Counted from the stretch's first letter, positions 2,881 to 58,083 are shown. The stretch is DNA of 64,000 nucleotides from Vicinamibacteria bacterium (GCA_963578725.1 CAUZDS010000008.1:6409-70408); one strand, 5' to 3'. Notes: generated by a model from the sequence alone, not told the origin. A program made the numbers and translations.

Positions 2881-3270
2881 CTACCCCTGTCCCGCGATCC
2901 GCTGGATGGTCCACACGATACCGGTCGCTGCGATGGTGAGCGAGGCTGGAATCACGACCCGGCGCCGATACCAGTCCTGCTGGCAGACCTGGAACACGGC
3001 ACCGAACGCAAGGCCGATCACGGTCAGCTGGCTAATTTAGACCCCAGCGTTGAACGACAGCAGTGCCGTGACGAAGTCTGAGCGGGGCAGTCCCAGTTCT
3101 GAGAGCACGCCGGCGAACCCCATTCCGTGGAGGAGTCCGAAGCCGAACACCAGTGCGACGCGCCACGGCTGCAGATCCCGGGTGACCAGGTTCCCGATCG
3201 CCACGTAGGCGATCGACAACGCGATGAGCAGGCTCGACCACCTGCCGCGGGGCGCGGTATCATGTGCCAC
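2881..3270 (-). pseudogene. HupE/UreJ-family remnant, N-terminally truncated, with an in-frame TAA
   Basis: The 77-aa ORF ends ...GFGLLHGMGFAGVLSELGL...LLSFNAGV then TAA (3037-3039). The same frame continues ISQLTVIGLAFGAVF...IAATGIVWTIQRIAGQG to a TAG at 2881-2883. The stop replaces the Glu of the conserved FNxGVE(I/L)GQL motif. An upstream in-frame stop leaves only about 128 aa in total, against about 190 aa for the family. Confidence 0.55.
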
Positions 3271-3298
3271 GATTCACTGAGACGGGACATCAGCCACC

Positions 3299-3883
3299 GT
3301 GCCTGGGACGCACAGCCGTTGCCCGTGGGGAACATCGCACCCCCTTTACGTGTCGTACCACGATACGGAGTGGGGTGTGCCTCAGCACGACGACACGCGG
3401 CTGTTCGAGATGCTGATGCTCGAGGGTGCGCAGGCCGGGCTCAGCTGGTTGACGGTGCTCAAGAAACGAGAGGCGTATCGGCGGGCCTTCAGCCAGTTCG
3501 ACCCGCAGAAGGTCGCGCGCTACGACGCGCGGAAGATCGAGCGTCTGCTGGCGGACGCCGCCATTATCCGCAACCGGCTAAAGATCCGGTCGGCGGTCAC
3601 GAACGCCCGAGCGTTCCTCGAGGTGCAGGCAGCGTTCGGCAGCTTCGACGCGTATGTCTGGCGTTTCGTCGACGGCCGATCGAAACAGAATGCCTGGACC
3701 AGTCTGGAGCAGGTGCCGACGCGCACCGCGGTGTCGGACTCGCTCAGCAAAGACCTCAAGGCGCGGGGATTCACGTTCGTCGGCTCGACGATCTGCTATG
3801 CCCACATGCAGGCGACCGGAATGGTTAACGACCACCTGGTGAGCTGCTTCCGGCATCGCGCCGTCCAGGGCGTACGATCGTGA
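3299..3883 (+). CDS. tag: DNA-3-methyladenine glycosylase I
   Basis: 194 aa. RCPWGTSHPLYVSYHDTEWGVPQHDDTRLFEMLMLEGAQAGLSWLTVLKKREAYRRAF matches the Tag family end to end. Confidence 0.9.
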   Translation: MPGTHSRCPWGTSHPLYVSYHDTEWGVPQHDDTRLFEMLMLEGAQAGLSWLTVLKKREAYRRAFSQFDPQKVARYDARKIERLLADAAIIRNRLKIRSAVTNARAFLEVQAAFGSFDAYVWRFVDGRSKQNAWTSLEQVPTRTAVSDSLSKDLKARGFTFVGSTICYAHMQATGMVNDHLVSCFRHRAVQGVRS

Positions 3884-3941
3884 CGTGACTGCAGGCGGAG
3901 CGTAGGTCGCCGACGTTGGCGGCCTGAACGAGGGGGAGACC

Positions 3942-4934
3942 ATGGGAATGCAATCGATGACAACGGGGATCGCGCTGGGAGCCATCGTCGCTGTCGGCCT
4001 GGGCGTGTCGGCTGTGACCGTTGAAACGCAAGACGCGGGACGCGCCCCGCGAAACGTTGCTGAGTTCGACGCGATGTTCCAGGAACTCTCGAACTGGGGC
4101 CGCTGGGGCGCTGATGACGAGCGTGGCACACTCAACCTCGTCACGCCGGCCAAGAGCCGTCAGGCTGCCGCGCTGGTTCGCAGCGGGACCACGGTGTCGC
4201 TGGCGCACAATCCGATGACCGCCGAGGCGCCCGATAATCCATCGACCGCGTTCGAACACATTATGGGCGAGAGCCTTCGGAGTGACACGTATCGATTTAG
4301 ATATCACGGGTATGGGGTTAGCCATATCGATTCGCTCTGCCACTTCATGCACAACGGCCGGCTCTACAACGACATTCCGCCCACTGCTAGTACGCCGGAG
4401 GGATGCGGCAAGCTCGGCATCCAGAACCTCAAGCGCGGCATCGTCACGCGCGGTGTCCTGCTCGACTTCCCCCGCCTCAAGGGCGTGCCCTACCTTGAGC
4501 CAGCGACGCCAATCTACGTCGAAGATATCGAGGCGTGGGAGCGGCAATCTGGCGTCACAGTATCGGCCGGAGACGCCATCTTCGTCCGCACCGGCCGGTG
4601 GGCGCGCCGCGCCGCCCTCGGGCCCTGGCGGGTGTCGGGGAACAGCGCCGGGTTGCACGCGTCCGTGCTCCCCTGGATCAAGGCACGCGACGTCGCGTTC
4701 GTGGGGAGCGATGTGGCGACCGACGTGATGCCTTCGCTGGTCGACGGTGTCACGCAGCCGCTCCATACGTTACTGATTGCCGGTCTCGGCATGAACATCT
4801 TCGACAACATGGACCTCGAAGCGCTCGCTGACGCCGCGGCCCGGGAAAACCGCTGGGAGTTCCTGCTCACGGCCGGCCCAATTCCCGTCCCGGGCGGCAC
4901 CGGGTCGCCGCTGAATCCGATCGCCGTGTTCTGA
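3942..4934 (+). CDS. cyclase-family protein (kynurenine formamidase-like fold), secreted
   Basis: 330 aa. Signal-like N-terminus, then WGRWGADDERGTLNLVTP... and GSDVATDV motifs of the putative cyclase family. The RBS GGGGGAG lies upstream of the ATG. Confidence 0.8.
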   Translation: MGMQSMTTGIALGAIVAVGLGVSAVTVETQDAGRAPRNVAEFDAMFQELSNWGRWGADDERGTLNLVTPAKSRQAAALVRSGTTVSLAHNPMTAEAPDNPSTAFEHIMGESLRSDTYRFRYHGYGVSHIDSLCHFMHNGRLYNDIPPTASTPEGCGKLGIQNLKRGIVTRGVLLDFPRLKGVPYLEPATPIYVEDIEAWERQSGVTVSAGDAIFVRTGRWARRAALGPWRVSGNSAGLHASVLPWIKARDVAFVGSDVATDVMPSLVDGVTQPLHTLLIAGLGMNIFDNMDLEALADAAARENRWEFLLTAGPIPVPGGTGSPLNPIAVF

Positions 4935-5103: not shown

Positions 5104-8046
5104 TCAGAACCGGAACAAGCGCGTGGCCTTGACGACAAAGCCGCGATTGCGCAGCTCGGAGAACCGGTTGGGTAAGAGGGAATCGACGTTACGATCTTCG
5201 GTGTAGACGAGGAACAGCTCGCTTCCCGGGGTGTATTCCCATCGAACACGGAGGTTGTTGCTCCATGTACGGCTGTTCGAGTTGTATTGAAGGAGGCCAC
5301 TCAGGAACATCCGAGGGTTGAAGCTGTAGTTGACACGGCTGCTGACGAGCGTGGTGTTGAACGAGCCCTCGGGCAGGTCGACCCAGTTGAAGGAGATGCC
5401 GGGCTCGATCGAGAACTCATCCAGCAGATTGATCCGGCCCCGGCTCAAGGAGACCGTCCTGATGTCACCGGTCCAGAAGCTGCCCGACGTAAATGTAAGG
5501 TTGCCGCTGACCCGCCGCTGCGCGCCCATCGCGTACGAGAGCTCAACACTGCGGAAGGCGTGGCCACCAACCGGGATCGTCACCCCGTCTGAGATTTCAA
5601 ATGGGTCCTGCAACAGTTCGTACGAGCTGATCACGCTCGCGCCGAACCGATCGCTGTTCTCGAGCTCGGCCTGGAATCTGAACTGTCGGCTTCGTGTTTC
5701 GAGAAACCCCTCGTCCGCCGTCAGGAAGTAGTCGATGTTGCCGGCGAATGTGAACTGTCGCACCAGCTCGATGCCACGGGGTCGCGGGGTGAACTCCGCC
5801 GACACGTTCGTTCGTCGGAAATTGTCTCGCCGGACGAATCCTACCTCGGGGAGGAAGTTGTCCCCGACCATGAGATGGTCGACAGTCAGACCGTACCGGT
5901 CCCCGTTGTACCCGAACCGGCCTTGGTAGCTGCGGTCTTTCCCAGAGATGCCCGGCGTCCTGGTCTGCGCGTAATAGGCCAGGAACGTGAGGTTGTCGTA
6001 AAAAGAGAAGGTCGCATCGAGGCCATACGCTTGATTCGATCCGTTACCTACGCGGGACACGGTCCGGTTCGTGAAGATGCCACCGATGCTGCTTCGGCGG
6101 AGAAGGTCGCGTTTGAGTCGCACGACGGTAAAGTTGGTCGACTCGATCCCGTTCTCCGGCGACGCGTCGGCTTGGATATTCAGCGCGCCCACGTCGAATG
6201 ATCCGAGCTTTCCCGTCACCCGTCCTCCGACGGGTATCGGGACCACCGTGCCGCTTTCCAGACCGATCCGCCGGCTGAAGAACATGGTGGGCGCCCCGCC
6301 ACCGCCTCCGCCACCTCCGCCACCCCCACCACGCCCTCCCCCGCCCCTGCCACGGGCGAAGTCGAAGATGCCACGGCCCTCTAGGAAGAACTCCCGTTTC
6401 TCTGGAAAGAACAGACTAAACCGCGTCAGGTTCACCTGTTGCTCGTCCATCTCGACCTGCGCGAAGTCGGTGTTGTAGGTGAGATCAGCCGTCAGGCTCC
6501 GGGAAAGGCCGTACTTGACGTCGATGCCGAAATCGCCGTCCGCGTCGTTACGCCGGTTGGCGGTGACGTCGGTGGTTGTCCCGCCAATCCCGTACGGTTT
6601 TACCTCGAGGTTCAGCGACCGCGGCGGGGTCTCGAGACCCACCAGCGTGGCCGCCGACGACACCTTGTACATGCCCGAGGGGCCGTAGGAGGCGGGGACA
6701 GCTGCCAGGGTGGACCACTCGTTCTTCCACCGCACGATTCGACGCAGGTTGATGCCCCAGATCTGAGGTCCTGATAGGGCGTAGCGGAGCGATTTGAACG
6801 GAATCTCGATCTCGGTGGTCCACCCGTCAGCAAACCGCGCGCTGCGTGGATTCCAGACCGTGTTCCAGTCATTATTGAAATTGCCCTCGTTGGTGAAAAC
6901 CTGATCCCGTAGCGCTCCGAGCGGATTCGTCTGGAACGCGAAGCCGTTGCGCCGGTCGTGGAACGTGTCGAGCACGACCGAGAAGTTCTCGTTCTGCACC
7001 AGGTTGTTGCTATCCCGCCGCATCTCGTTGGCTACAATCCGTTCCGGCTGGCTGTCCCAGCACCGTGCCGCCACGTAGATCTTGTCGTCGTCAAAGAAGA
7101 CCCACGCCTCCGTCCGTTCCGTGGCGAGCTCGCCCTCGCGCGGCACTTGCTGAATGAAGTCGCTGACCGGCTGCACCAGCTGGTAGATCTCGTCGTCGAG
7201 CCGGCCGTCCACGGTCAGGGGCCGGTCGAGCCGGATGGCTCGCAGTGTCACCCGTCCCTCGGCGTCACGGGACACCACGGCGGGCGGCACCGGTGGTGGC
7301 GGACCATCGATTGCTCCGTCGAGTCGCACCGCGTCGGACTGGGCGTCGGACGGGCTCGGCACGCCGGGTGGGGTGCCGGCTGGCGACGCGACGTCGGGCG
7401 CGGCCTGGTCGTCTCCCTCCGCCAGTGTCGCGTCCGGCGGCTGGGCCTCGGTCTCTGGAGTGGCGGCCATTCTGGAATCGATCGGCGCGGTTGGGGCCTC
7501 ACCAAGGGCGATGTGCAGCTCCCGGTTCAGCGCGTCCACGATCCGGTCCTGGAGGTCGAAGAGGTCATTGAGCTGGCCATCGACCTTGATCGCTTGAACC
7601 ACCGTTCCGGTGTGCACGTCGAGGAAACGCGCCGTAATCTGCATGAGATCGCCGAGCCGCTGGTATCCACCGCTGATGAGCCACGTCGCATCAACCAGGC
7701 GGCCGATGTCGACGGCATCCCGTTCATCAGGTTGCGTCCCATTGCTCGTGCTCGCGATCTCCAGCGCGTCGAAGAGGCGCGTGCGCCCAATGACCGAGAG
7801 TCCGCGGATCTCCTGCAGATCAGCCATCACGGTTTCGGCAATACCCGCGCCAATCCAGTCGTCTGCCGATTCTCCTGTGATGTTGGAGAAGGGGATCACG
7901 ACGACGTTGGGGCGCGGCGCGGCTTCGGCCGGTTGCCTCATGTCCGTGGCCTGCTGCCCCGCCGCCTGCCCAGACACAGGCACAGCCAGCGCGCACAGGA
8001 TCGAGAGGCACGCCACCGCCACGCCAAGGCGCACCACCGTGCTCAC
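5104..8046 (-). CDS. large secreted/outer-membrane protein: TolB-like (COG5616-type) N-domain + Pro-rich linker + CBM9-like/DUF5916 domain
   Basis: 980 aa with a GTG start and signal peptide MSTVVRLGVAVACLSILCALAVPVSG. VVVIPFSNITGESADDWIGAGIAETVMADL has the TolB-like pattern. RLDRPLTVDGRLDDEIYQ...WVFFDDDKIYVAARCWD...NENFSVVLDTFHDRRNGFAFQTNPLG has the CBM9/DUF5916 pattern. The C-terminus is beta-barrel-like and ends in F. Confidence 0.7.
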   Translation of the reverse strand: MSTVVRLGVAVACLSILCALAVPVSGQAAGQQATDMRQPAEAAPRPNVVVIPFSNITGESADDWIGAGIAETVMADLQEIRGLSVIGRTRLFDALEIASTSNGTQPDERDAVDIGRLVDATWLISGGYQRLGDLMQITARFLDVHTGTVVQAIKVDGQLNDLFDLQDRIVDALNRELHIALGEAPTAPIDSRMAATPETEAQPPDATLAEGDDQAAPDVASPAGTPPGVPSPSDAQSDAVRLDGAIDGPPPPVPPAVVSRDAEGRVTLRAIRLDRPLTVDGRLDDEIYQLVQPVSDFIQQVPREGELATERTEAWVFFDDDKIYVAARCWDSQPERIVANEMRRDSNNLVQNENFSVVLDTFHDRRNGFAFQTNPLGALRDQVFTNEGNFNNDWNTVWNPRSARFADGWTTEIEIPFKSLRYALSGPQIWGINLRRIVRWKNEWSTLAAVPASYGPSGMYKVSSAATLVGLETPPRSLNLEVKPYGIGGTTTDVTANRRNDADGDFGIDVKYGLSRSLTADLTYNTDFAQVEMDEQQVNLTRFSLFFPEKREFFLEGRGIFDFARGRGGGGRGGGGGGGGGGGGAPTMFFSRRIGLESGTVVPIPVGGRVTGKLGSFDVGALNIQADASPENGIESTNFTVVRLKRDLLRRSSIGGIFTNRTVSRVGNGSNQAYGLDATFSFYDNLTFLAYYAQTRTPGISGKDRSYQGRFGYNGDRYGLTVDHLMVGDNFLPEVGFVRRDNFRRTNVSAEFTPRPRGIELVRQFTFAGNIDYFLTADEGFLETRSRQFRFQAELENSDRFGASVISSYELLQDPFEISDGVTIPVGGHAFRSVELSYAMGAQRRVSGNLTFTSGSFWTGDIRTVSLSRGRINLLDEFSIEPGISFNWVDLPEGSFNTTLVSSRVNYSFNPRMFLSGLLQYNSNSRTWSNNLRVRWEYTPGSELFLVYTEDRNVDSLLPNRFSELRNRGFVVKATRLFRF

Positions 8047-24012: not shown

Positions 24013-24063
24013 GGCGTGAGTATACCCAACGGCGTAGGAGCTTCGGCCCGGGCGTGTGGAGCG

Positions 24064-24462
24064 TCAGCCCGTGTCGCGGTCGACCCACCGGACCCGAGGC
24101 GCTAGTGCCCAGTTGAACTCGTCGAGCCGGTCCGGCCCCAGACGCTCCACCTCCACCAAGATTCGGGCGGCCTGAGCCAGCAGATCGGCCACGTCGACGC
24201 ACTGACAGGCAGGTGCGAACGGGCGCAGATAGGTCGAGCCTCGGGTCAGCATGTAGACCGCTCCGTGATGGTTGCGCCGCTGCACGTGATGGAGCGCGAC
24301 CCCGATCTGCAGGATGCCTTGATAGAGCGCGCGGACCGGTCGCGGTTCGTCGCGCCACAGGTCTTCGAGGGTTTCGTGTTGGTCGAAGAACTCGCGTCGG
24401 TTGAATTGTTCGACCCCCTGCCGCAACAGGCGCGGAGGTGACTCATCGCACGGCTTAGACAC
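24064..24462 (-). CDS. DUF309 domain-containing protein
   Basis: 132 aa with a GTG start. GVEQFNRREFFDQHETLEDLWRDE...YQGILQIGVALHHVQRRNHHGA has the DUF309 pattern. Confidence 0.8.
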   Translation of the reverse strand: MSKPCDESPPRLLRQGVEQFNRREFFDQHETLEDLWRDEPRPVRALYQGILQIGVALHHVQRRNHHGAVYMLTRGSTYLRPFAPACQCVDVADLLAQAARILVEVERLGPDRLDEFNWALAPRVRWVDRDTG

Positions 24463-24883
24463 GGTCGTGATTCTACTCGTGGCCCGAGTTGAACACTTGC
24501 TTTGCCACGGCTCGGGTGATGCAGGACCGCGGGGCGACCGCGATGGGTCCGGAATCCCGGCGTGCTGGTATCATGCGCTGTCTGGGTCGTTGGAGTGTGG
24601 GCCCGCGCCGCGGCGGTCGTGGTCGCGGCCGCCGTCAAGGGGATCGTCTCCGACGACAGTGATCATGACCGATTGTCCGCACGGTGGCCAGGCCGAGGCC
24701 GGTCAGATAACGAGGTTGAGCGTCCCGTGTCAGACGTTCGTGATCTGATGCCCGGGTGGGGTGTTCTGCCTGACGGCGTTGCTCCGCAGTCACACATGTC
24801 CGATTTGTCCCTTCGTCGCGTCTCGCTAGGCAGGCGCCGCGCCTCGGGTTTCGGTCAGCCAGCGTCTGGCACGGGATACTAGA

Positions 24884-28130: not shown

Positions 28131-28736
28131 ATGGGGGTGCGCCGTGTCAAGCCGTGGGTGTTCGCGGCGTGCCTCATCCCGCTCGGTCTTCTCGTCTGGC
28201 GGGGCGCCACCAATGGTCTCACGGCCAACCCGATCGAGTTCATCACCCACAGGACCGGCGACTGGACGCTGCGTTTTCTGCTGATCACCCTCGCAATCAC
28301 CCCGCTGCGAAGGGTGACCGCGTGGAGCAGCCTGGTACAGCTCCGACGGATGCTGGGACTGTTTGCCTTTTTCTACGCGGTGCTCCACTTCGGCACCTAT
28401 CTGGTGTTGGACTTCTTTTTCGCGTTCGACCTGATCCTCGATGACGTCGTGGAGCGCCGGTACGTCACCGCCGGGTTCACCGGGTTCGTGTTGCTGATTC
28501 CGCTGGCTGTCACTTCGACCCAGCGGATGATCCGCCGACTTGGCGGCGCGCGCTGGCGGCGGCTCCACCGTCTCGTGTATGGTGCCGCGCTGGCGGGGGT
28601 CGTGCACTATTTTTGGTTGGTCAAGGTCGACATCCGGCCGCCCCTGATGTACGCCATGATCCTGGGCCTGTTGCTCGGGGCGCGCGTGTGGTTCTGGTTG
28701 TCAAAAAAGGGCTCCGGAGTCTTGTCGCGAGCCTAG
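28131..28736 (+). CDS. msrQ: protein-methionine-sulfoxide reductase heme-binding subunit MsrQ (YedZ)
   Basis: ATG at 28131. KPWVFAACLIPLGLLVW...NPIEFITHRTGDWTLRFLLITLAITPLRR...FYAVLHF. Six TM segments, directly after msrP. Confidence 0.9.
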   Translation: MGVRRVKPWVFAACLIPLGLLVWRGATNGLTANPIEFITHRTGDWTLRFLLITLAITPLRRVTAWSSLVQLRRMLGLFAFFYAVLHFGTYLVLDFFFAFDLILDDVVERRYVTAGFTGFVLLIPLAVTSTQRMIRRLGGARWRRLHRLVYGAALAGVVHYFWLVKVDIRPPLMYAMILGLLLGARVWFWLSKKGSGVLSRA

Positions 28737-28835
28737 GGCCCGTGGTGAAACACCGGGTTACACTGAGACCGGCGATGTACCCAGTTCGTAACTGGATTCG
28801 TCGAGCGATACGCGACGTCTTATCGAGGCAGTCCT
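28734..28835 (+). repeat. stop-adjacent structured repeat, short copy C
   Basis: The sequence begins TAGGGCCCGTGGTGAAACACCGGG...GAGACCGGCGATG. It shares the 5' module and the GACCGGCG block with copies A and B. It contains the hairpins CCAGTT-cgt-AACTGG and CGTCG-n9-CGACG, and ends GAGGCAGTCCT directly before the ATG at 28836. Confidence 0.4.
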
Positions 28836-31655: not shown

Positions 31656-32804
31656 CTAGAAGACCTTGCGTTGTTGCGCAGTGCCGTGCGCGGCCAGCGT
31701 AAACCGCGCTTCAGGCGTCGCACGATCGGAAAGCTGCGCCGTGACGTACTCGCCGACGGCTGGGCCGTGCTTGAAGCCGTGTCCAGACCCGCCGCCCACC
31801 AGCCACACGTTGTCCATCTCCGGGTGTCGGTCGATAATGAAGTCACCGTTCGAGCTGTTCGAGTACTGGCAGACGTGCGCTTCGAGCAGTGGCGCGGCGT
31901 CGAGGGCGGGGACGCGGCGGGTGAGGATCATGCGCGCGACCTCGAGAGCGCCGTCCGAAACGCGCCGCTCGCCGAGATCGGGGTCGAATGGTGGTCCGTG
32001 GTGGTCGAGACCCACCTTGAAGCCGCGCCCTTCCAGGTCCGGGACTCCATAGACGCCACCAGCGAAGTCGACCCACGCCGGCATCGCCGGGGGCGCGAAC
32101 CGCCGGTCGCCGGGCGCGGAGCCGAAGAAGAATACCTCCTGACGTGTTGGATGAATCCGGTCACCGAGCGTGGCGGGAAACAACGTGGGTAGCCACGGGC
32201 CGCAGGCGAAGACAAACGTGCCGGCTGTGATCCGGTCGCCGTCACTCGTGCGCACCGACTCGAGGTGTTCGGTGTCTGCCGGCGGGGTCACTGCTGTGAT
32301 GCGGTAGTCGACGCTCTGCCTGACCGCCTGACGCACGACCGCCTGCACGGCGCGCCGGGCCATGATGACACCCGCTTCGGACTCGAGCACGCCGCGCGTG
32401 ACGGGACCGAAGCTGAGCTGCGGATATCGCCGCTCGAGCTCGGCCCGGTCGAGGATCTCGAACGGCACGCGGAGTCGGCGCAGCGTATCCACGGTCTCAT
32501 CGGTCATCGGGTCGTCCGATCGGGTCATCCACAGGACGCCGGTCTGCGTGAAGAGCTCCAGACGTCCGTCCCGGAAGAGCTCTAGCCACGCGGTCAACGA
32601 GCGTTGCGCCCAGCGCGAGTAGAGCGCGTCGTGGCCGTATCCGATGCGGAAGACGCGGGAGATGCCACCGGAACTGGACCGGGTGTTGCCGGCACCGAAC
32701 GCGTCGACCAGCGTCACCGATCGTCCGCTCCGGCGGAGCTGAAGGGCCGTCCAGGCGCCGAAGACACCGGCGCCGATCACGGCAACATCGGAGACATGAG
32801 ACAT
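31656..32804 (-). CDS. FAD-dependent oxidoreductase (DAO / sarcosine-oxidase-like family)
   Basis: The ATG at 32804 gives MSHVSDVAVIGAGVFGAWTALQLRRSGRSVTLVDA (GxGxxG). The protein runs about 382 aa, with GGSGHGFKHGP near the C-terminus. Confidence 0.85.
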   Translation of the reverse strand: MSHVSDVAVIGAGVFGAWTALQLRRSGRSVTLVDAFGAGNTRSSSGGISRVFRIGYGHDALYSRWAQRSLTAWLELFRDGRLELFTQTGVLWMTRSDDPMTDETVDTLRRLRVPFEILDRAELERRYPQLSFGPVTRGVLESEAGVIMARRAVQAVVRQAVRQSVDYRITAVTPPADTEHLESVRTSDGDRITAGTFVFACGPWLPTLFPATLGDRIHPTRQEVFFFGSAPGDRRFAPPAMPAWVDFAGGVYGVPDLEGRGFKVGLDHHGPPFDPDLGERRVSDGALEVARMILTRRVPALDAAPLLEAHVCQYSNSSNGDFIIDRHPEMDNVWLVGGGSGHGFKHGPAVGEYVTAQLSDRATPEARFTLAAHGTAQQRKVF

Positions 32805-32842
32805 TGATTCGAAACCGGAATGGAACGTGTAGAGTAGCACCA

Positions 32843-33481
32843 ATGTCCGCACGCCGTATCGAGGTCTGTCCGGATGCTGTGCACCTGCCGGCGTACCTCA
32901 CGCTCGATGCGCAACGGGCGCTCGCCGAGCGCTGCCGGTCGATCGGCATGAGTCCGACGGGCTGGTATGTCCCGACGGTGCGTGGAGGCGGTCGGATGCG
33001 CGTGCGGATGGTCTGTTTAGGGCGGCACTGGAATGCCCGGACATACCGCTACGAGGCGGTGCGCAGCGACTACGATGGCCTCCCGGCTCCGGCGCTGCCG
33101 GCCGACCTGGCCGTGCTCGCGTCTCGGCTCGCGGCGGACGCCGGGATGCGTCTGACCCCGGACGTCTGCATTCTCAACCACTACAATCTGGACGGGAAGA
33201 TGGGGCTGCACCAGGACAAGGACGAGGATCCAGACACGCTGGAAAGCGGGGTTCCGATCGTATCGGTGTCCATTGGGGACACGGCGAAGTTCATCCTGGG
33301 CGGCCGTACGCGTCGCGACACCAGGACGACGGTGCTCCTGGCGTCTGGTGATGGGTTCGTCTTCGGTGGGCGGAGTCGTTTGCGTTACCACGGTGTCGCG
33401 GCACTGCTGCCCGGTACCGCCCCCCCGGAACTTGGGCTCGAGGGCCGGTTCAACCTCACGTTTCGGCAGGGCGCGGTCTAG
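32843..33481 (+). CDS. alkB: Fe(II)/2-oxoglutarate-dependent dioxygenase AlkB
   Basis: The ATG at 32843 starts a product containing ILNHYNLDGKMGLHQDKDE...PIVSVSIGDTAKF...RLRYHGV...RFNLTFRQ. The HxD...H facial triad and the RxNxTxR motif are present. Confidence 0.9.
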   Translation: MSARRIEVCPDAVHLPAYLTLDAQRALAERCRSIGMSPTGWYVPTVRGGGRMRVRMVCLGRHWNARTYRYEAVRSDYDGLPAPALPADLAVLASRLAADAGMRLTPDVCILNHYNLDGKMGLHQDKDEDPDTLESGVPIVSVSIGDTAKFILGGRTRRDTRTTVLLASGDGFVFGGRSRLRYHGVAALLPGTAPPELGLEGRFNLTFRQGAV

Positions 33482-33631
33482 CAGCCCGAGGTGAAAGTCC
33501 CGCTGCAGTCGACCGGCCCTGTATACCGGCTGGCGGCGTTGCCGCTCGGTCGAATACCGCCGGTATGCTCCCTCGCCGTGCTTTGCCAGCCAGGAGCGCG
33601 GTTTTGGTTCGCGGGGTCGCCTGAGGCTCGA
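33479..33631 (+). repeat. stop-adjacent structured repeat, copy A (about 150 nt)
   Basis: It starts at the alkB TAG. Thirty-four of its first 40 nt are identical to copy B. The long-range stems are 33483-33491/33620-33628 and 33498-33503/33611-33616. The internal hairpins are 33527-33544 and 33554-33566. Confidence 0.6.
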
Positions 33632-33675
33632 CGCGTGCGCCGTGCGGTTGGGTGTCCGCTACGCAACAGGGGCCG

Positions 33676-42659: not shown

Positions 42660-44033
42660 ATGCCGCCTCACCGCCGAATCGACGTGGTGCTCGACTCGGT
42701 CAAACGACTGCAGCGGATTGGTGCGTCCGCCAACCTGCTCAACCTACTCCAGAAACAACATCCAGCTGACCTCGCTGAAGTCTTCAGCGAGTTGCCCGAC
42801 AAGGATTGTCGCGGCGCGCTCAAACTGCTGCTCGACCACAATAGCCGCCTCGCGATGGAGGCGCTGATCGAGTACGGCCCCGGGCCTGGCTCCGCGCTGC
42901 TCGCGGACCACCCCGCCGGTCAGATCGCGGTCTGGTTGCAGGAGTTGCCGTCGGACGACGCGGTAGCGCTGATCGACGAGCTGCCGGACGAGCTATCCGC
43001 CGCCGTACTCGAACTGATGCGGCGTCAGGAGTCGGGCGAGGTCGAGAACCTGCTCGAGTACGCCGAGCGCACCGCCGGGCGCATCATGAACCCGACGGTG
43101 TTTGCGCTCTCTGACGATCTGACGGCTGGCGAAGCGATCCAGGCGCTCCAGGGTTCACGCGAGGTGGAGATGGTGTTCTATCTCTATGTCGTCGACGAGC
43201 GCCGGCATCTCGTAGGGGTCGTCTCGCTGCGACGACTGTTGTTGGTGGCGCCGGAGACGCCGTTGCCGCGGATCATGACGACCGATCTGATCAGCGCGCG
43301 AGTGGGCACCGACCAGGAAGAGGTGGCCCAGCACGTCGCCAACTACAACCTGCTGGCGATCCCGGTCGTTGACGACGAGAACAAGCTCGCCGGCATCATC
43401 ACCGTCGACGACGTCATCGACATCATCCAGGATGAGGCGACGGAGGATATCTATCGGCTGGCGGGGGTCAGTGGCGACGAGCACGTGTTCTCGCCGGCGC
43501 TCGAGTCGGTGCGGAAACGGTTACCGTGGCTCGCCGTGAACCTGGTGACCGCCGTGCTGGCCGCCTTCGTGGTGCGGGCGTTTCAGGCCACCATCGACCA
43601 GGTGGTGGTGCTGGCGGTGCTCATGACCATCGTGGCCAGCATGGGTGGCAACGCGGCGACCCAAACGTTGACGATCATCGTCCGGGCGATCTCCCTCGGG
43701 GAGCTGACCTGGGGCAACTCGCGCAAGGCGGTGCTCAAGGAGGCGCTCGTAGGTCTGGGCAACGGGTTGGCGCTTGGTACCGCCGGAGCCACGGTTGCCT
43801 GGTTGATGACCGGGAACGTTTTCCTTGGACTGATCCTGGCGCTGGCGATGGTGATCAATCTGCTGGTGGCCGCCATCGCCGCCACGTTGATCCCGATCGC
43901 GCTCCGGGCCTTGAACATCGACCCGGCGCTCGCCTCTGCGGTGTTTATCACCACGCTCACGGACGTATTCGGGTTCTTTGCCTTCCTGGGGCTCGCGACC
44001 ATCTTCCTGCGGTATTTGCTGCCGGTGGTGTGA
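42660..44033 (+). CDS. mgtE: magnesium transporter MgtE
   Basis: 457 aa. It has an MgtE N-domain, a CBS pair (GRIMNPTVFAL..., LAIPVVDDENKLAGIITVDDVIDI) and a TM domain with GGNAATQT. Confidence 0.95.
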   Translation: MPPHRRIDVVLDSVKRLQRIGASANLLNLLQKQHPADLAEVFSELPDKDCRGALKLLLDHNSRLAMEALIEYGPGPGSALLADHPAGQIAVWLQELPSDDAVALIDELPDELSAAVLELMRRQESGEVENLLEYAERTAGRIMNPTVFALSDDLTAGEAIQALQGSREVEMVFYLYVVDERRHLVGVVSLRRLLLVAPETPLPRIMTTDLISARVGTDQEEVAQHVANYNLLAIPVVDDENKLAGIITVDDVIDIIQDEATEDIYRLAGVSGDEHVFSPALESVRKRLPWLAVNLVTAVLAAFVVRAFQATIDQVVVLAVLMTIVASMGGNAATQTLTIIVRAISLGELTWGNSRKAVLKEALVGLGNGLALGTAGATVAWLMTGNVFLGLILALAMVINLLVAAIAATLIPIALRALNIDPALASAVFITTLTDVFGFFAFLGLATIFLRYLLPVV

Positions 44034-44034
44034 T

Positions 44035-44209
44035 CTAGGAGCCCGTGGTGAGAGCCCCGCTGCATTCGACCGGCGCTGAATCACGACTGGGCGGCGTTAG
44101 TCTCGGTCGGATACTGCCAGTATCCTCCGTCGTCGCGCCTTGCACCGGCCGAGCGCGGCGTCGATCGTGACGGTTCTCGGAGCAATGCGGGGTTTTACCA
44201 GGGGCTCCT
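44035..44209 (+). repeat. stop-adjacent structured repeat, copy B (about 175 nt)
   Basis: It starts 2 nt after the mgtE TGA (CTAGGAGCCCGTGGTGAGAG...). The closing stem is AGGAGCCCGTGG (44037-44048) with CCAGGGGCTCCT (44198-44209). The second stem is CCCCGC (44055-44060) with GCGGGG (44187-44192). The hairpins are 44085-44102 and 44109-44125. Confidence 0.6.
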
Positions 44210-44314
44210 GGCCGAAAGGGCAAGAGGCCGCGGGGAGGCAGTCGATGGAGGGGTGAGGTTTCGCCGCGTTCTTGCTGCAGGCATCACACGGGTGGGGGCG
44301 CGCGCACTCGAACA

Positions 44315-56407: not shown

Positions 56408-56592
56408 ACCGTCGCGTTGTGAGCTCCGAGCCTCAGTGGCGTGTGTCATGAGTGCGGTGGCATTTGGCCGACGATGCATCGCGCGCACCGCCCTTCTCGT
56501 CGGTCGAATAGTTCCGACATGCTCCCTTCTCGTACCTCCAGTGGACGGTGCGTGGCAGCGTACTCGCGCACCCTCGGTGCGTCACCGTACTC

Positions 56593-58083
56593 ATGACACG
56601 GACCTTTGAGGTATCCGCTCCGTCCATGCCGTCCCGTTCGGCTACTGGTTACTCACCCCACCTCCGAACGGCGCTGGTGTTGACGGGCACCGGGACGGCC
56701 GGCGCCTATCATGCCGGCGTCCTTCGTGCGCTGCACGAGGCCGGGGTCAAGGTCGACCTGGTAGCCGGGCGTGGTATCGGTGCGGTGGGGGCAGCGTTTG
56801 CGGCGGTCGACGGCGCTGCGCAGCTCTGGGAGCCCGCTGGTCTGTGGAGTGTCCCGGGCGCGACGCGTCTCTACCGCTGGCGACCCGCGCTCCGCACCGC
56901 CGCCTGGATTCTCGGCGTCGCGCTTGGTGCCCTGGTGCTGCCGCTCAGTGCCGTAGTGCTCGCAGCACTGGTCTATCCGGTAGCCTATCTGCTACGGGTC
57001 GTCGGGTTGACCGGCAGCGACCAGCTGACCACCGGGCTCGGACAGTTGGTCGACTGGGTCTTCGCGCCGGCGGCCCTGCCGATCTGGCTACCCCGGCTGG
57101 TCGTGGTCGCGCTGGTTCTCTTCATCGCGGTGTTGGTCTGCGCGGCCGTTGTGGCTTCGATGCGTGCCCGCGCACAGCGGCGGACGCGTGGTGCGCTCTG
57201 GTGGGTGTTGCTCGGGGCGCCGCTCGACGTCGGTCGCGTGCGGGGCTGGTTCGCCGACGGCTTGTGGAAGCTGATGCGTGGTGCCGTGTCAATCGGGCGG
57301 CCCAGTCCTGTGGATCTTGGGAGGCGATACGCCGACCTAGTGTCAGAGAATCTCGGCCAGCCTGGCTTCCGTGAGCTATTGATCACGGCGCACGACCTCG
57401 ATGGCCGTTGTGATCTGATCTTCGCGTTACTGAAGGAACCATACCGCCAGCGGTTCTTCCGGAGTCGGCACGGCGAGTCGGAGAGTGACCGGCGTCTGGA
57501 AGCGTTTGATCTGGCCGGCGGCGCGCGGAGACACTGGTTCGACGCGTTCGCGGCGGCGATCAGTGTGCCGATAGCCACCGAGCCGTGGCTGGTGCGGTTC
57601 GCCCCGTCGAGCAGCTGGCAGGGCGAGACCCACCGGGTCTGTGACAGGCCCGACTCGGTGGGGCGACTGCTCGACGAAGTGGCCCTGGCCGGCGCCGGGC
57701 AGGTGATCCTGGTATCGGCGGTGTCCGGTCCCTCAGGTCCGCACACGCTGGGTACCGGTCGGCGGGACGGCCGGGGCCGGATTGGGGAGTCGCTCTCGGC
57801 GATCGAAGCGGCCGCGGTCCGCGATGCCGTCACCTCGCGCGGGGGGCTGTTCGAGGCGGTGTTCGTGATCCAGCCGGTTCACAACCCGCTCGGACCGTTC
57901 GATTTTACTGGGTGCTACGACGAGCGGTCGGACCGCGAGCAGACGCTGGCCGAACTTTTGGATCGCGGGTATGACGACGGACATCGACAGTTCGTCGGGC
58001 CGGTGGTCGGCGCCAGCGGCGAGGCGATCGAACCTGCGCCAAAACCGCGTGCCGTGGCCCGTGTCCCCGGTTCTGACAGCTGA
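56593..58083 (+). CDS. patatin-like phospholipase-domain membrane protein, apparently lacking the Ser nucleophile
   Basis: ALVLTGTGTAGAYHAGVLRALHEAG is a glycine-rich-loop equivalent. VAGRGIGAVGAAF occupies the GxSxG position. Two or three TM helices lie mid-protein. The start is uncertain (56593 or 56626). Confidence 0.7.
   Translation: MTRTFEVSAPSMPSRSATGYSPHLRTALVLTGTGTAGAYHAGVLRALHEAGVKVDLVAGRGIGAVGAAFAAVDGAAQLWEPAGLWSVPGATRLYRWRPALRTAAWILGVALGALVLPLSAVVLAALVYPVAYLLRVVGLTGSDQLTTGLGQLVDWVFAPAALPIWLPRLVVVALVLFIAVLVCAAVVASMRARAQRRTRGALWWVLLGAPLDVGRVRGWFADGLWKLMRGAVSIGRPSPVDLGRRYADLVSENLGQPGFRELLITAHDLDGRCDLIFALLKEPYRQRFFRSRHGESESDRRLEAFDLAGGARRHWFDAFAAAISVPIATEPWLVRFAPSSSWQGETHRVCDRPDSVGRLLDEVALAGAGQVILVSAVSGPSGPHTLGTGRRDGRGRIGESLSAIEAAAVRDAVTSRGGLFEAVFVIQPVHNPLGPFDFTGCYDERSDREQTLAELLDRGYDDGHRQFVGPVVGASGEAIEPAPKPRAVARVPGSDS

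Follow-up and report, generated by a model that had tools for sequence, protein, structure and literature searches.

A stretch of 64,000 nucleotides from a Vicinamibacteria bacterium (GCA_963578725.1, CAUZDS010000008.1:6409-70408), referred to here as the window, carries a repeat that begins at the stop codon of one gene and recurs behind another, raising the question of whether it works as an RNA, encodes a protein or is mobile DNA. The two copies, termed A and B, are very probably two old insertions of a ~158-bp non-autonomous DNA transposon (MITE), presumably mobilised by an IS1182/IS5-type DDE transposase.

Copies and remnants in the window

Copy A (33482-33629, plus strand, 148 nt) starts directly after the TAG of an AlkB-like 2OG-Fe(II) oxygenase gene (32804-33481) that is convergent with moaA, and copy B (44039-44207, plus strand, 169 nt), at a distance of 10,559 nt, starts five bases after the TGA of mgtE (42660-44033). 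An earlier, sequence-only reading had placed the copies beside alkB/moaA and mgtE/recO, and all four neighbours were recovered by Pfam (AlkB-like 2OG-Fe(II) oxygenase, MoaA, MgtE and RecO). The same reading had described copies about 80% identical some 10.5 kb apart, with 34 of 40 positions alike in a pair of 40-mers; blastn of copy A against the window gives 78.1% identity over 128 columns (E=1.4e-21), the 40-mers indeed differ at six positions, and a third match to copy A of comparable quality was absent elsewhere in the 64-kb window by blastn. Both copies are directly preceded by a shared TCTAG. The CTAG to the left of copy A (33478-33481), the commonest flank in the family, holds the TAG stop of the AlkB-like gene (33479-33481), and that to the left of copy B (44035-44038) lies one base past the mgtE TGA (44031-44033).

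An nhmmer profile made from 33 canonical copies of the family matches the window five times, comprising copy B in full length, copy A (profile positions 1-131, with a degenerate right end beyond them) and three fragments. Copy A is decayed: the profile match covers 33482-33608 (score 83), the left terminal inverted repeat (TIR) is CAGCCCGAGGTGAAAGTCCCGC, the right one is degenerate (GCGGGGTCGCCTGAGGCTC) and is followed by GACG, not CTAG, and the copy shares 76% identity with the consensus and 84% with its closest relative in the family, at locus L083. Copy B is full-length but diverged (profile 2-157, score 100; 73% identity to the consensus), with extra bases in its 3' half, TIRs GAGCCCGTGGTGAGAGCCCCGC and GCGGGGTTTTACCAGGGGCTC, an RNA fold with z=-4.06, and on its right the target copy CTGG (44208-44211), with one mismatch to CTAG. 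The fragments are an internal piece of a decayed member (24764-24855, plus strand, profile 43-131, score 38, E=7e-10), a right end of ~50 nt that abuts CTAG at 28733-28736 (28738-28786, minus strand, profile 107-156, E=6e-4), and a strongly decayed member (56448-56603, plus strand, profile 12-156, score 34, E=1e-8). The ends of this last member form a near-perfect inverted repeat of their own (GTGTCATGAGTGCGGTG ... CACCGTACTCATGACAC) and not the family TIR, the hairpin being kept despite the changed terminal sequence. The window thus holds at least five insertions or remnants of the family; the pair first noticed was real, but three decayed fragments had been overlooked and copy B extends to 44207. 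A left-end-like CAGCCCGTGTCGCGGTCGACC is also present at ~24060-24100.

The window is syntenic with other Vicinamibacteria contigs, including that of locus L060, at 75-81% nucleotide identity, and its MgtE protein occurs unchanged on the metagenome contigs ERZ27247695 and JGI 3300031802, so that a Vicinamibacteria host is very probable. The mgtE-recO spacer of L060 contains a short derivative of the repeat, ~65 nt further downstream than the window copy and inverted relative to it, and this difference in site and orientation suggests that the two lineages took up insertions independently. In two syntenic comparisons, with L060 and L052, the spacers have diverged and give no clean empty site.

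A dispersed family and its target site

The family was collected by scanning one genome per species with a 19-base core common to copies A and B (GNCCCGCTGCANTCGACCGGC), which yielded at least 117 loci in species-representative genomes; in these the profile gave at least 166 non-overlapping matches, 69-82 of them full length among the matches listed. Most hosts among the matches listed are MAGs assigned to Vicinamibacterales, Vicinamibacteria or "Acidobacteria", many loci occurring per genome, and the 4.9-Mb chromosome OZ253664.1 alone has at least 17. The matches listed also include Gammaproteobacteria (Ca. Rariloculus, Rariloculaceae and three further MAGs), one Longimicrobiales MAG and one Bryobacterales MAG. 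A few core matches in Actinomycetota, Alphaproteobacteria and Myxococcales were set aside as chance, having no further similarity. Copies from Acidobacteriota and Gammaproteobacteria are 86-90% identical, a degree of similarity that would imply recent cross-phylum spread. The consensus has no match in plasmid and phage collections, the core pattern is absent from viral contigs, and no description of the family was found in the literature searched or in Rfam. As a separate observation, a short, perfect, REP-like palindrome, ACGTTCCCGCGGGAACGT, recurs in Vicinamibacterales chromosomes (L067 at ~5713 and 7807; L077 at ~1109-1891).

A canonical copy is 158 bp long (157-159) and has the termini CAGCCCGTGG(YR)AAAG(Y)CCCGC...GCGGGG..CCACGGGCTG, its layout being CAGCCCGTGG(CA/TG)AAAG(C/T)CCCGCTGCATTCGACCGGC ... 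GCCGGTCTCGGTGCGACGCGGGG(T)TTCACCACGGGCTG. Inverted repeats of ~22 bp form the ends, pairing reaches ~37 bp inwards, and the element as a whole is an imperfect palindrome; across 52 copies the termini pair in 96.6% of cells (helix 1, columns 1-10 with 154-163). Internal-deletion derivatives of ~65-95 bp occur alongside longer variants that carry inserts, one type of which is another small repeat. This second repeat, GC-rich and beginning TTACC(C/T)CTTGGGGCTGCGCCCCAAACCCC..., was seen inside MITE copies at about column 42 in L023, L033, L105 and L034; it occupies the same internal position in several copies of one genome, and is either another mobile element or the mark of a subfamily that spread carrying the insert. 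In Ca. Rariloculus, copies also form tandem head-to-tail arrays, of three units of 159 nt in L080 (4351-4826) and two units of 161 nt in L031 (4207-4525), the arrangement that would arise when a new copy inserts into the CTAG generated by an older one.

The flanks point to a duplicated target. Among the matches listed, CTAG is found on the left of 29 of 82 copies, on the right of 30 of 82, and on both sides of 19, and a further eight copies have matching flanks other than CTAG (CTGG/CTGG three times, CTGA/CTGA twice, and CTAA/CTAA, CTAC/CTAC and CTTG/CTTG once each). A copy nested within the central hairpin of another is flanked by CTGT/CTAT. Agreement of non-CTAG flanks on the two sides is the signature of target-site duplication and not of an element-borne motif, and the duplicated target is short, TA-centred and usually CTAG. 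Its length may be 2 (TA), 3 or 4 bp, with 4 bp most parsimonious for the non-CTAG cases; flank statistics leave the range at 2-4 bp because the CTAG palindrome overlaps the element's terminal G/C, and given the asymmetries between left and right flanks no single model of 2, 3 or 4 bp fits all copies. Other elements use the same sequence. Locus L083 contains two copies (2884-4303 and 5114-6534) of an unrelated insertion sequence (IS) with a DDE_5 (PF13546) plus DDE_Tnp_1 transposase, the former of which we take to be an IS701-type domain. This IS has the TIR TACTACTTTGTTAGATC and CTAG flanks, and one copy lies exactly in a CTAG that flanks a MITE copy, suggesting that CTAG is a common target of different IS types in these genomes.

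CTAG is scarce in the window, where base composition predicts 204 occurrences and 46 are present (4.4-fold depletion); of these, 20 are intergenic or TAG stops, though only ~13% of the window is non-coding. In a position survey of 69 full-length copies with simple GC3-based gene calls, 29 of the 69 abut a stop codon at a distance of 5 nt or less, convergent gene pairs enclose 19 and divergent pairs eight, all among the matches listed. If CTAG is targeted, genic insertions are purged and CTAG often falls at TAG stops, copies would accumulate where genes end.

Insertion sequences with the same termini

Partner elements were sought by scanning for TAG followed by the 20-nt terminus, with the invariant interior bases of the MITE forbidden. 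The scan returned one viral-contig end and more than 120 metagenome loci, many of them at ~50-140 nt from the end of their contig, a position typical of repeats; an interior 23-mer of the viral contig, L120, found nothing in the metagenome scan. Complete elements from the metagenomes are 1470-1530 bp long and have the termini CAGCCCGTGG(NN)AAAGTC...CCACGGGCTG. The flanks of eight transposase-bearing elements are CTAG/CTAG in four, CTAG/CTAA in two, ATAG/CTAG in one and ATAG/TTAT in one (L218), and a ninth element of 607 bp (L176) is flanked by TTAG/TTAG. Each IS has one ORF; its 455-473 aa product shows the N-terminal sequence MAMGKR..FW..LP..HPFY and comprises DUF772 (PF05598) and DDE_Tnp_1 (PF01609), both above Pfam gathering thresholds. 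The best NCBIfam match is IS1182 (NF033551; 160-188 bits, E=1e-47 to 1e-55), followed by IS5; the scores are below the curated cut-offs for IS1182 (270 bits) and IS5, so the family assignment is approximate. The layout, with DUF772 and DDE_Tnp_1 in a single ORF and a length within 1.3-1.9 kb, is that of the IS1182/IS5 superfamily. Thirteen loci carry such transposase genes, 55-70% identical to one another, and at E<=1e-30 the family comprises at least 8000 protein clusters, from sources including Bryobacteraceae, Phycisphaerae, Caldilineaceae and Planctomycetota.

The metagenome loci (L121-L240) additionally contain at least five other MITE-like families with the terminus CAGCCCGTGG..AAAGTCCC and different interiors. 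Several of these have a central AGTATT...AATAC hairpin, and one type, on SXGR01 contigs, always ends ~137-140 nt from the contig end.

No full-length IS with these termini was found in the window or in the Vicinamibacterales loci (~8 kb around each MITE). Likewise, a search among the matches listed for right-TIR partners of left-end-only matches, for multi-copy proteins and for ORFs flanked by inverted repeats gave no partner, returning only housekeeping genes, a secreted protein family with no Pfam match, and the unrelated IS701-family IS in CTAG. A protein family of ~350-470 aa with a hydrophobic N-terminus, signal-peptide-like by eye, and the C-terminal motif (E)Y.CHE.N was observed in both Vicinamibacterales and Rariloculus loci (L016 6832-7881, L025 990-2069, L028 2447-3484, L071 172-1455, L075 5776-6915, L087 2300-3721); its members share 29-54% identity, and the two that were scanned have no Pfam match.

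The repeat therefore combines TIRs, a target-site duplication, small size with no transposase gene, and dispersed copies at sites that vary between relatives, and metagenomes contain ISs whose termini are identical to its own and whose flanks are CTAG, though none lies in the ~8-kb loci of MITE-bearing genomes. Target-site duplications and random orientation, which the sequence-only reading had named as the mark of a plain MITE, were both found. Of the options it had entertained (a REP-like stabiliser or terminator, a 3'-UTR-derived sRNA, or a MITE), the last has held up, given the duplications and the ISs with the same termini, and a strand-specific 3'-UTR RNA gained no support from the sense and antisense counts discussed below. 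We infer that the IS and the MITE reside together and that the latter is mobilised in trans. An IS1182/IS5-type transposase would bind the shared termini and insert the MITE at CTAG through staggered cleavage, with 4 bp as the most likely offset; insertions inside genes would be lethal or removed, and surviving copies would sit in intergenic CTAGs, many of them overlapping a TAG stop. With CTAG strongly avoided and genic insertions lost, both window copies would start at a gene end. These copies are probably no longer mobile, in view of the ~22% divergence between A and B and their partly lost ends, and any influence on alkB or mgtE transcripts, for example as a 3'-UTR hairpin, would be incidental.

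The closest known counterparts are MITEs derived from IS5/IS1182 elements. Shared features are the size of ~158 bp, the lack of coding capacity, TIRs identical to those of a full-length IS with DUF772 and DDE_Tnp_1, a TA-centred duplication in a palindromic tetranucleotide, and numerous intergenic copies with deletion and insertion derivatives; the differences are that the partner transposases here are below the NCBIfam IS1182 and IS5 cut-offs, and that the partner ISs come from metagenome contigs and not from the MITE-bearing genomes. The ERIC/IRU elements of Enterobacteria and the Correia elements (CREE/NEMIS) of Neisseria are TIR-bearing imperfect palindromes of ~100-160 bp whose insertion at TA is accompanied by a duplication; they are intergenic near gene ends in both orientations and vary in size through internal insertions and deletions. 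They can form long RNA hairpins when co-transcribed, and processing by RNase III/E and promoter effects have been shown for ERIC/Correia elements. The present family resembles them as a small, palindromic, intergenic TIR element at TA targets near gene ends, but has no sequence similarity to them, and a cognate IS can be named for it, whereas that of ERIC and Correia is unclear.

Published examples from the IS1182 family include an IS with a 4-bp direct repeat (PMC3281130, Table 2) and some members that target palindromes (PMC5678879), and a passage in PMC8027508 gives the target GGCC for ISPsy36 (IS1182 family) and CTAG for ISPsy32, whose family is unstated there. These target types agree with the palindromic tetranucleotide target proposed here. 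The staphylococcal IS1272 (IS1182 family) has a related transposase family and a palindromic target preference (PMC5678879), but it replaces target stem-loops and leaves no target-site duplication, whereas the present family keeps a duplicated CTAG.

The rod-like hairpin and its competing readings

RNAalifold on 52 distinct full-length copies returns one long hairpin. In a slightly amended structure 94.7% of cells are paired and 28 of 47 pairs carry double changes; 500 column shuffles all fall short of the real alignment on every covariation measure, and sliding the partners by 1-3 columns lowers pairing to 32-42%. Columns 66-98, for example, are CG in 23 copies, GC in 19 and AU in nine, columns 70-94 are GC in 30 and CG in 18, and columns 78-86 are UA in 35 and CG in 16. 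Wobble intermediates are rare, two U-G pairs being fixed, and the minor states comprise 71 A-C/C-A cells against 20 G-U cells, a contradictory strand signal. For a canonical copy the folding energy is -82.6 kcal/mol (z=-5.05). Several helices drawn earlier for copies A and B reappear in this hairpin: the long closing helices P1 and P2 are family helices 1 and 2, the ATACC/GGTAT hairpin (P5) is family helix 6, all three being present in both copies, and the A-U to U-A swap in P1 is the family pair of columns 8-156. The proposed P3 (TCGACCG/CGGTCGA) and P4 (CGGC/GCCG versus GACT/AGTC) failed, being 68.8% paired in 52 members with covariation no better than in shuffled or slid controls. The compensatory differences that had been noted are thus real and family-wide, but they support one rod-like hairpin and not a multi-helix fold.

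The rod-like hairpin is clearly maintained. Its upkeep may serve transposition, may result from intrastrand templated correction in the palindrome, or may serve an RNA effect. This feature counts against a simple MITE, as the compensatory change runs through the interior, which an end-binding DDE transposase does not require; a hairpin-like appearance is shared by other MITE families that have these termini. With at least 28 pairs along the whole 158 nt, well beyond the transposase-binding ends, selection on the hairpin itself deserves consideration, though we regard it as rather unlikely.

Maintenance of the fold is also the main argument for a structured cis-acting RNA (a 3'-UTR stabiliser, terminator or 3'-UTR-derived sRNA) conserved for its structure in the transcript of the upstream gene, a reading we judge very unlikely. 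Besides the very strong covariation and the stable canonical fold, a weak terminator-like site in copy A (33575-33602) fits such a role, as does the side facing the stop: among the matches listed, 21 of the 29 stop-abutting copies have their 5' end beside it and eight their 3' end, a mild orientation skew that has no explanation under the MITE reading. By contrast, copies in tandem-gene contexts are oriented at random to transcription (20 sense and 22 antisense, among the matches listed), a balance that argues against a strand-specific RNA role, and wobble pairs likewise favour no consistent strand. Terminator-like sites are not in excess (8 versus 5.7 +/- 2.7 in shuffles), and a U-tract is absent from canonical copies. 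By eye the repeat had been judged not to fit the cobalamin, SAH or ykkC consensus sequences; in Rfam, the 64-kb window has no match that reaches a gathering threshold, and permissive scans (E<=10) of copy A, copy B and a canonical copy gave nothing relevant. A cis-acting RNA is further opposed by the TIRs, target-site duplications and cognate IS, by the change of site and orientation between syntenic relatives, and by the presence of the same element beside unrelated genes in different phyla.

Alternatively, an HUH/Y1 enzyme could move the hairpin-bearing element in single-stranded form, in the manner of REPIN/RAYT or IS200/IS605 systems, and cleave it at the tetranucleotide. REPINs keep their hairpin by compensatory evolution, and the present family shares with REPIN/REP elements and their RAYT a hairpin-forming, multi-copy, extragenic nature and a fold kept by compensatory changes, here along the whole element and with few wobble intermediates. 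The conserved tetranucleotide bordering the element finds a precedent in the GTAG/CGTC-tagged REPs described in PMC3733652. However, the tetranucleotide here is the palindrome CTAG and not a GTAG...CTAC tag, the non-CTAG flanks co-vary in a way that fits a true target duplication and not a carried site, the element at 158 bp is much longer than REP units, ISs with a DDE transposase share its termini and flanks, and no Y1/RAYT gene was seen among the multi-copy or IR-flanked ORFs of the loci listed, all of which makes movement as single-stranded DNA highly improbable.

A small protein gene on the minus strand, suggested by the 62-aa, TTG-start ORF that both copies hold and that ends at the shared CTAG (33478-33666 and 44035-44223, equal in length), is refuted for practical purposes and is given almost no credence, since it has no Pfam match, stops break the corresponding frame in most of 52 family members and leave it open in just 16-24, column variability has no 3-periodicity (0.121, 0.131, 0.117), lengths of 157, 158 and 159 nt all occur in the family, and the two ORFs have unrelated upstream halves that fall beyond the repeat, in line with the non-coding character proposed from the sequence alone.

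The repeat is thus very probably of an ordinary bacterial kind, an apparently undescribed MITE family and not a new regulatory RNA, and a candidate "novel structured RNA" is removed. Annotators of Vicinamibacteria and of some marine or sediment Gammaproteobacteria gain a consensus, termini, a target and a partner IS type for a family that breaks assemblies and can mimic riboswitch-like motifs, and the family offers an example of a CTAG-targeting transposon ending up at stop codons in a GC-rich genome. Its family-wide compensatory evolution and cross-phylum distribution are somewhat unusual features that make it modestly interesting for MITE biology. Were the hairpin itself selected, this would point to a structure-dependent transposition step in the IS1182-like group, with a cruciform or hairpin as substrate or target, echoing the stem-loop dependence of IS1272, or alternatively to a host-level RNA role of co-transcribed copies.
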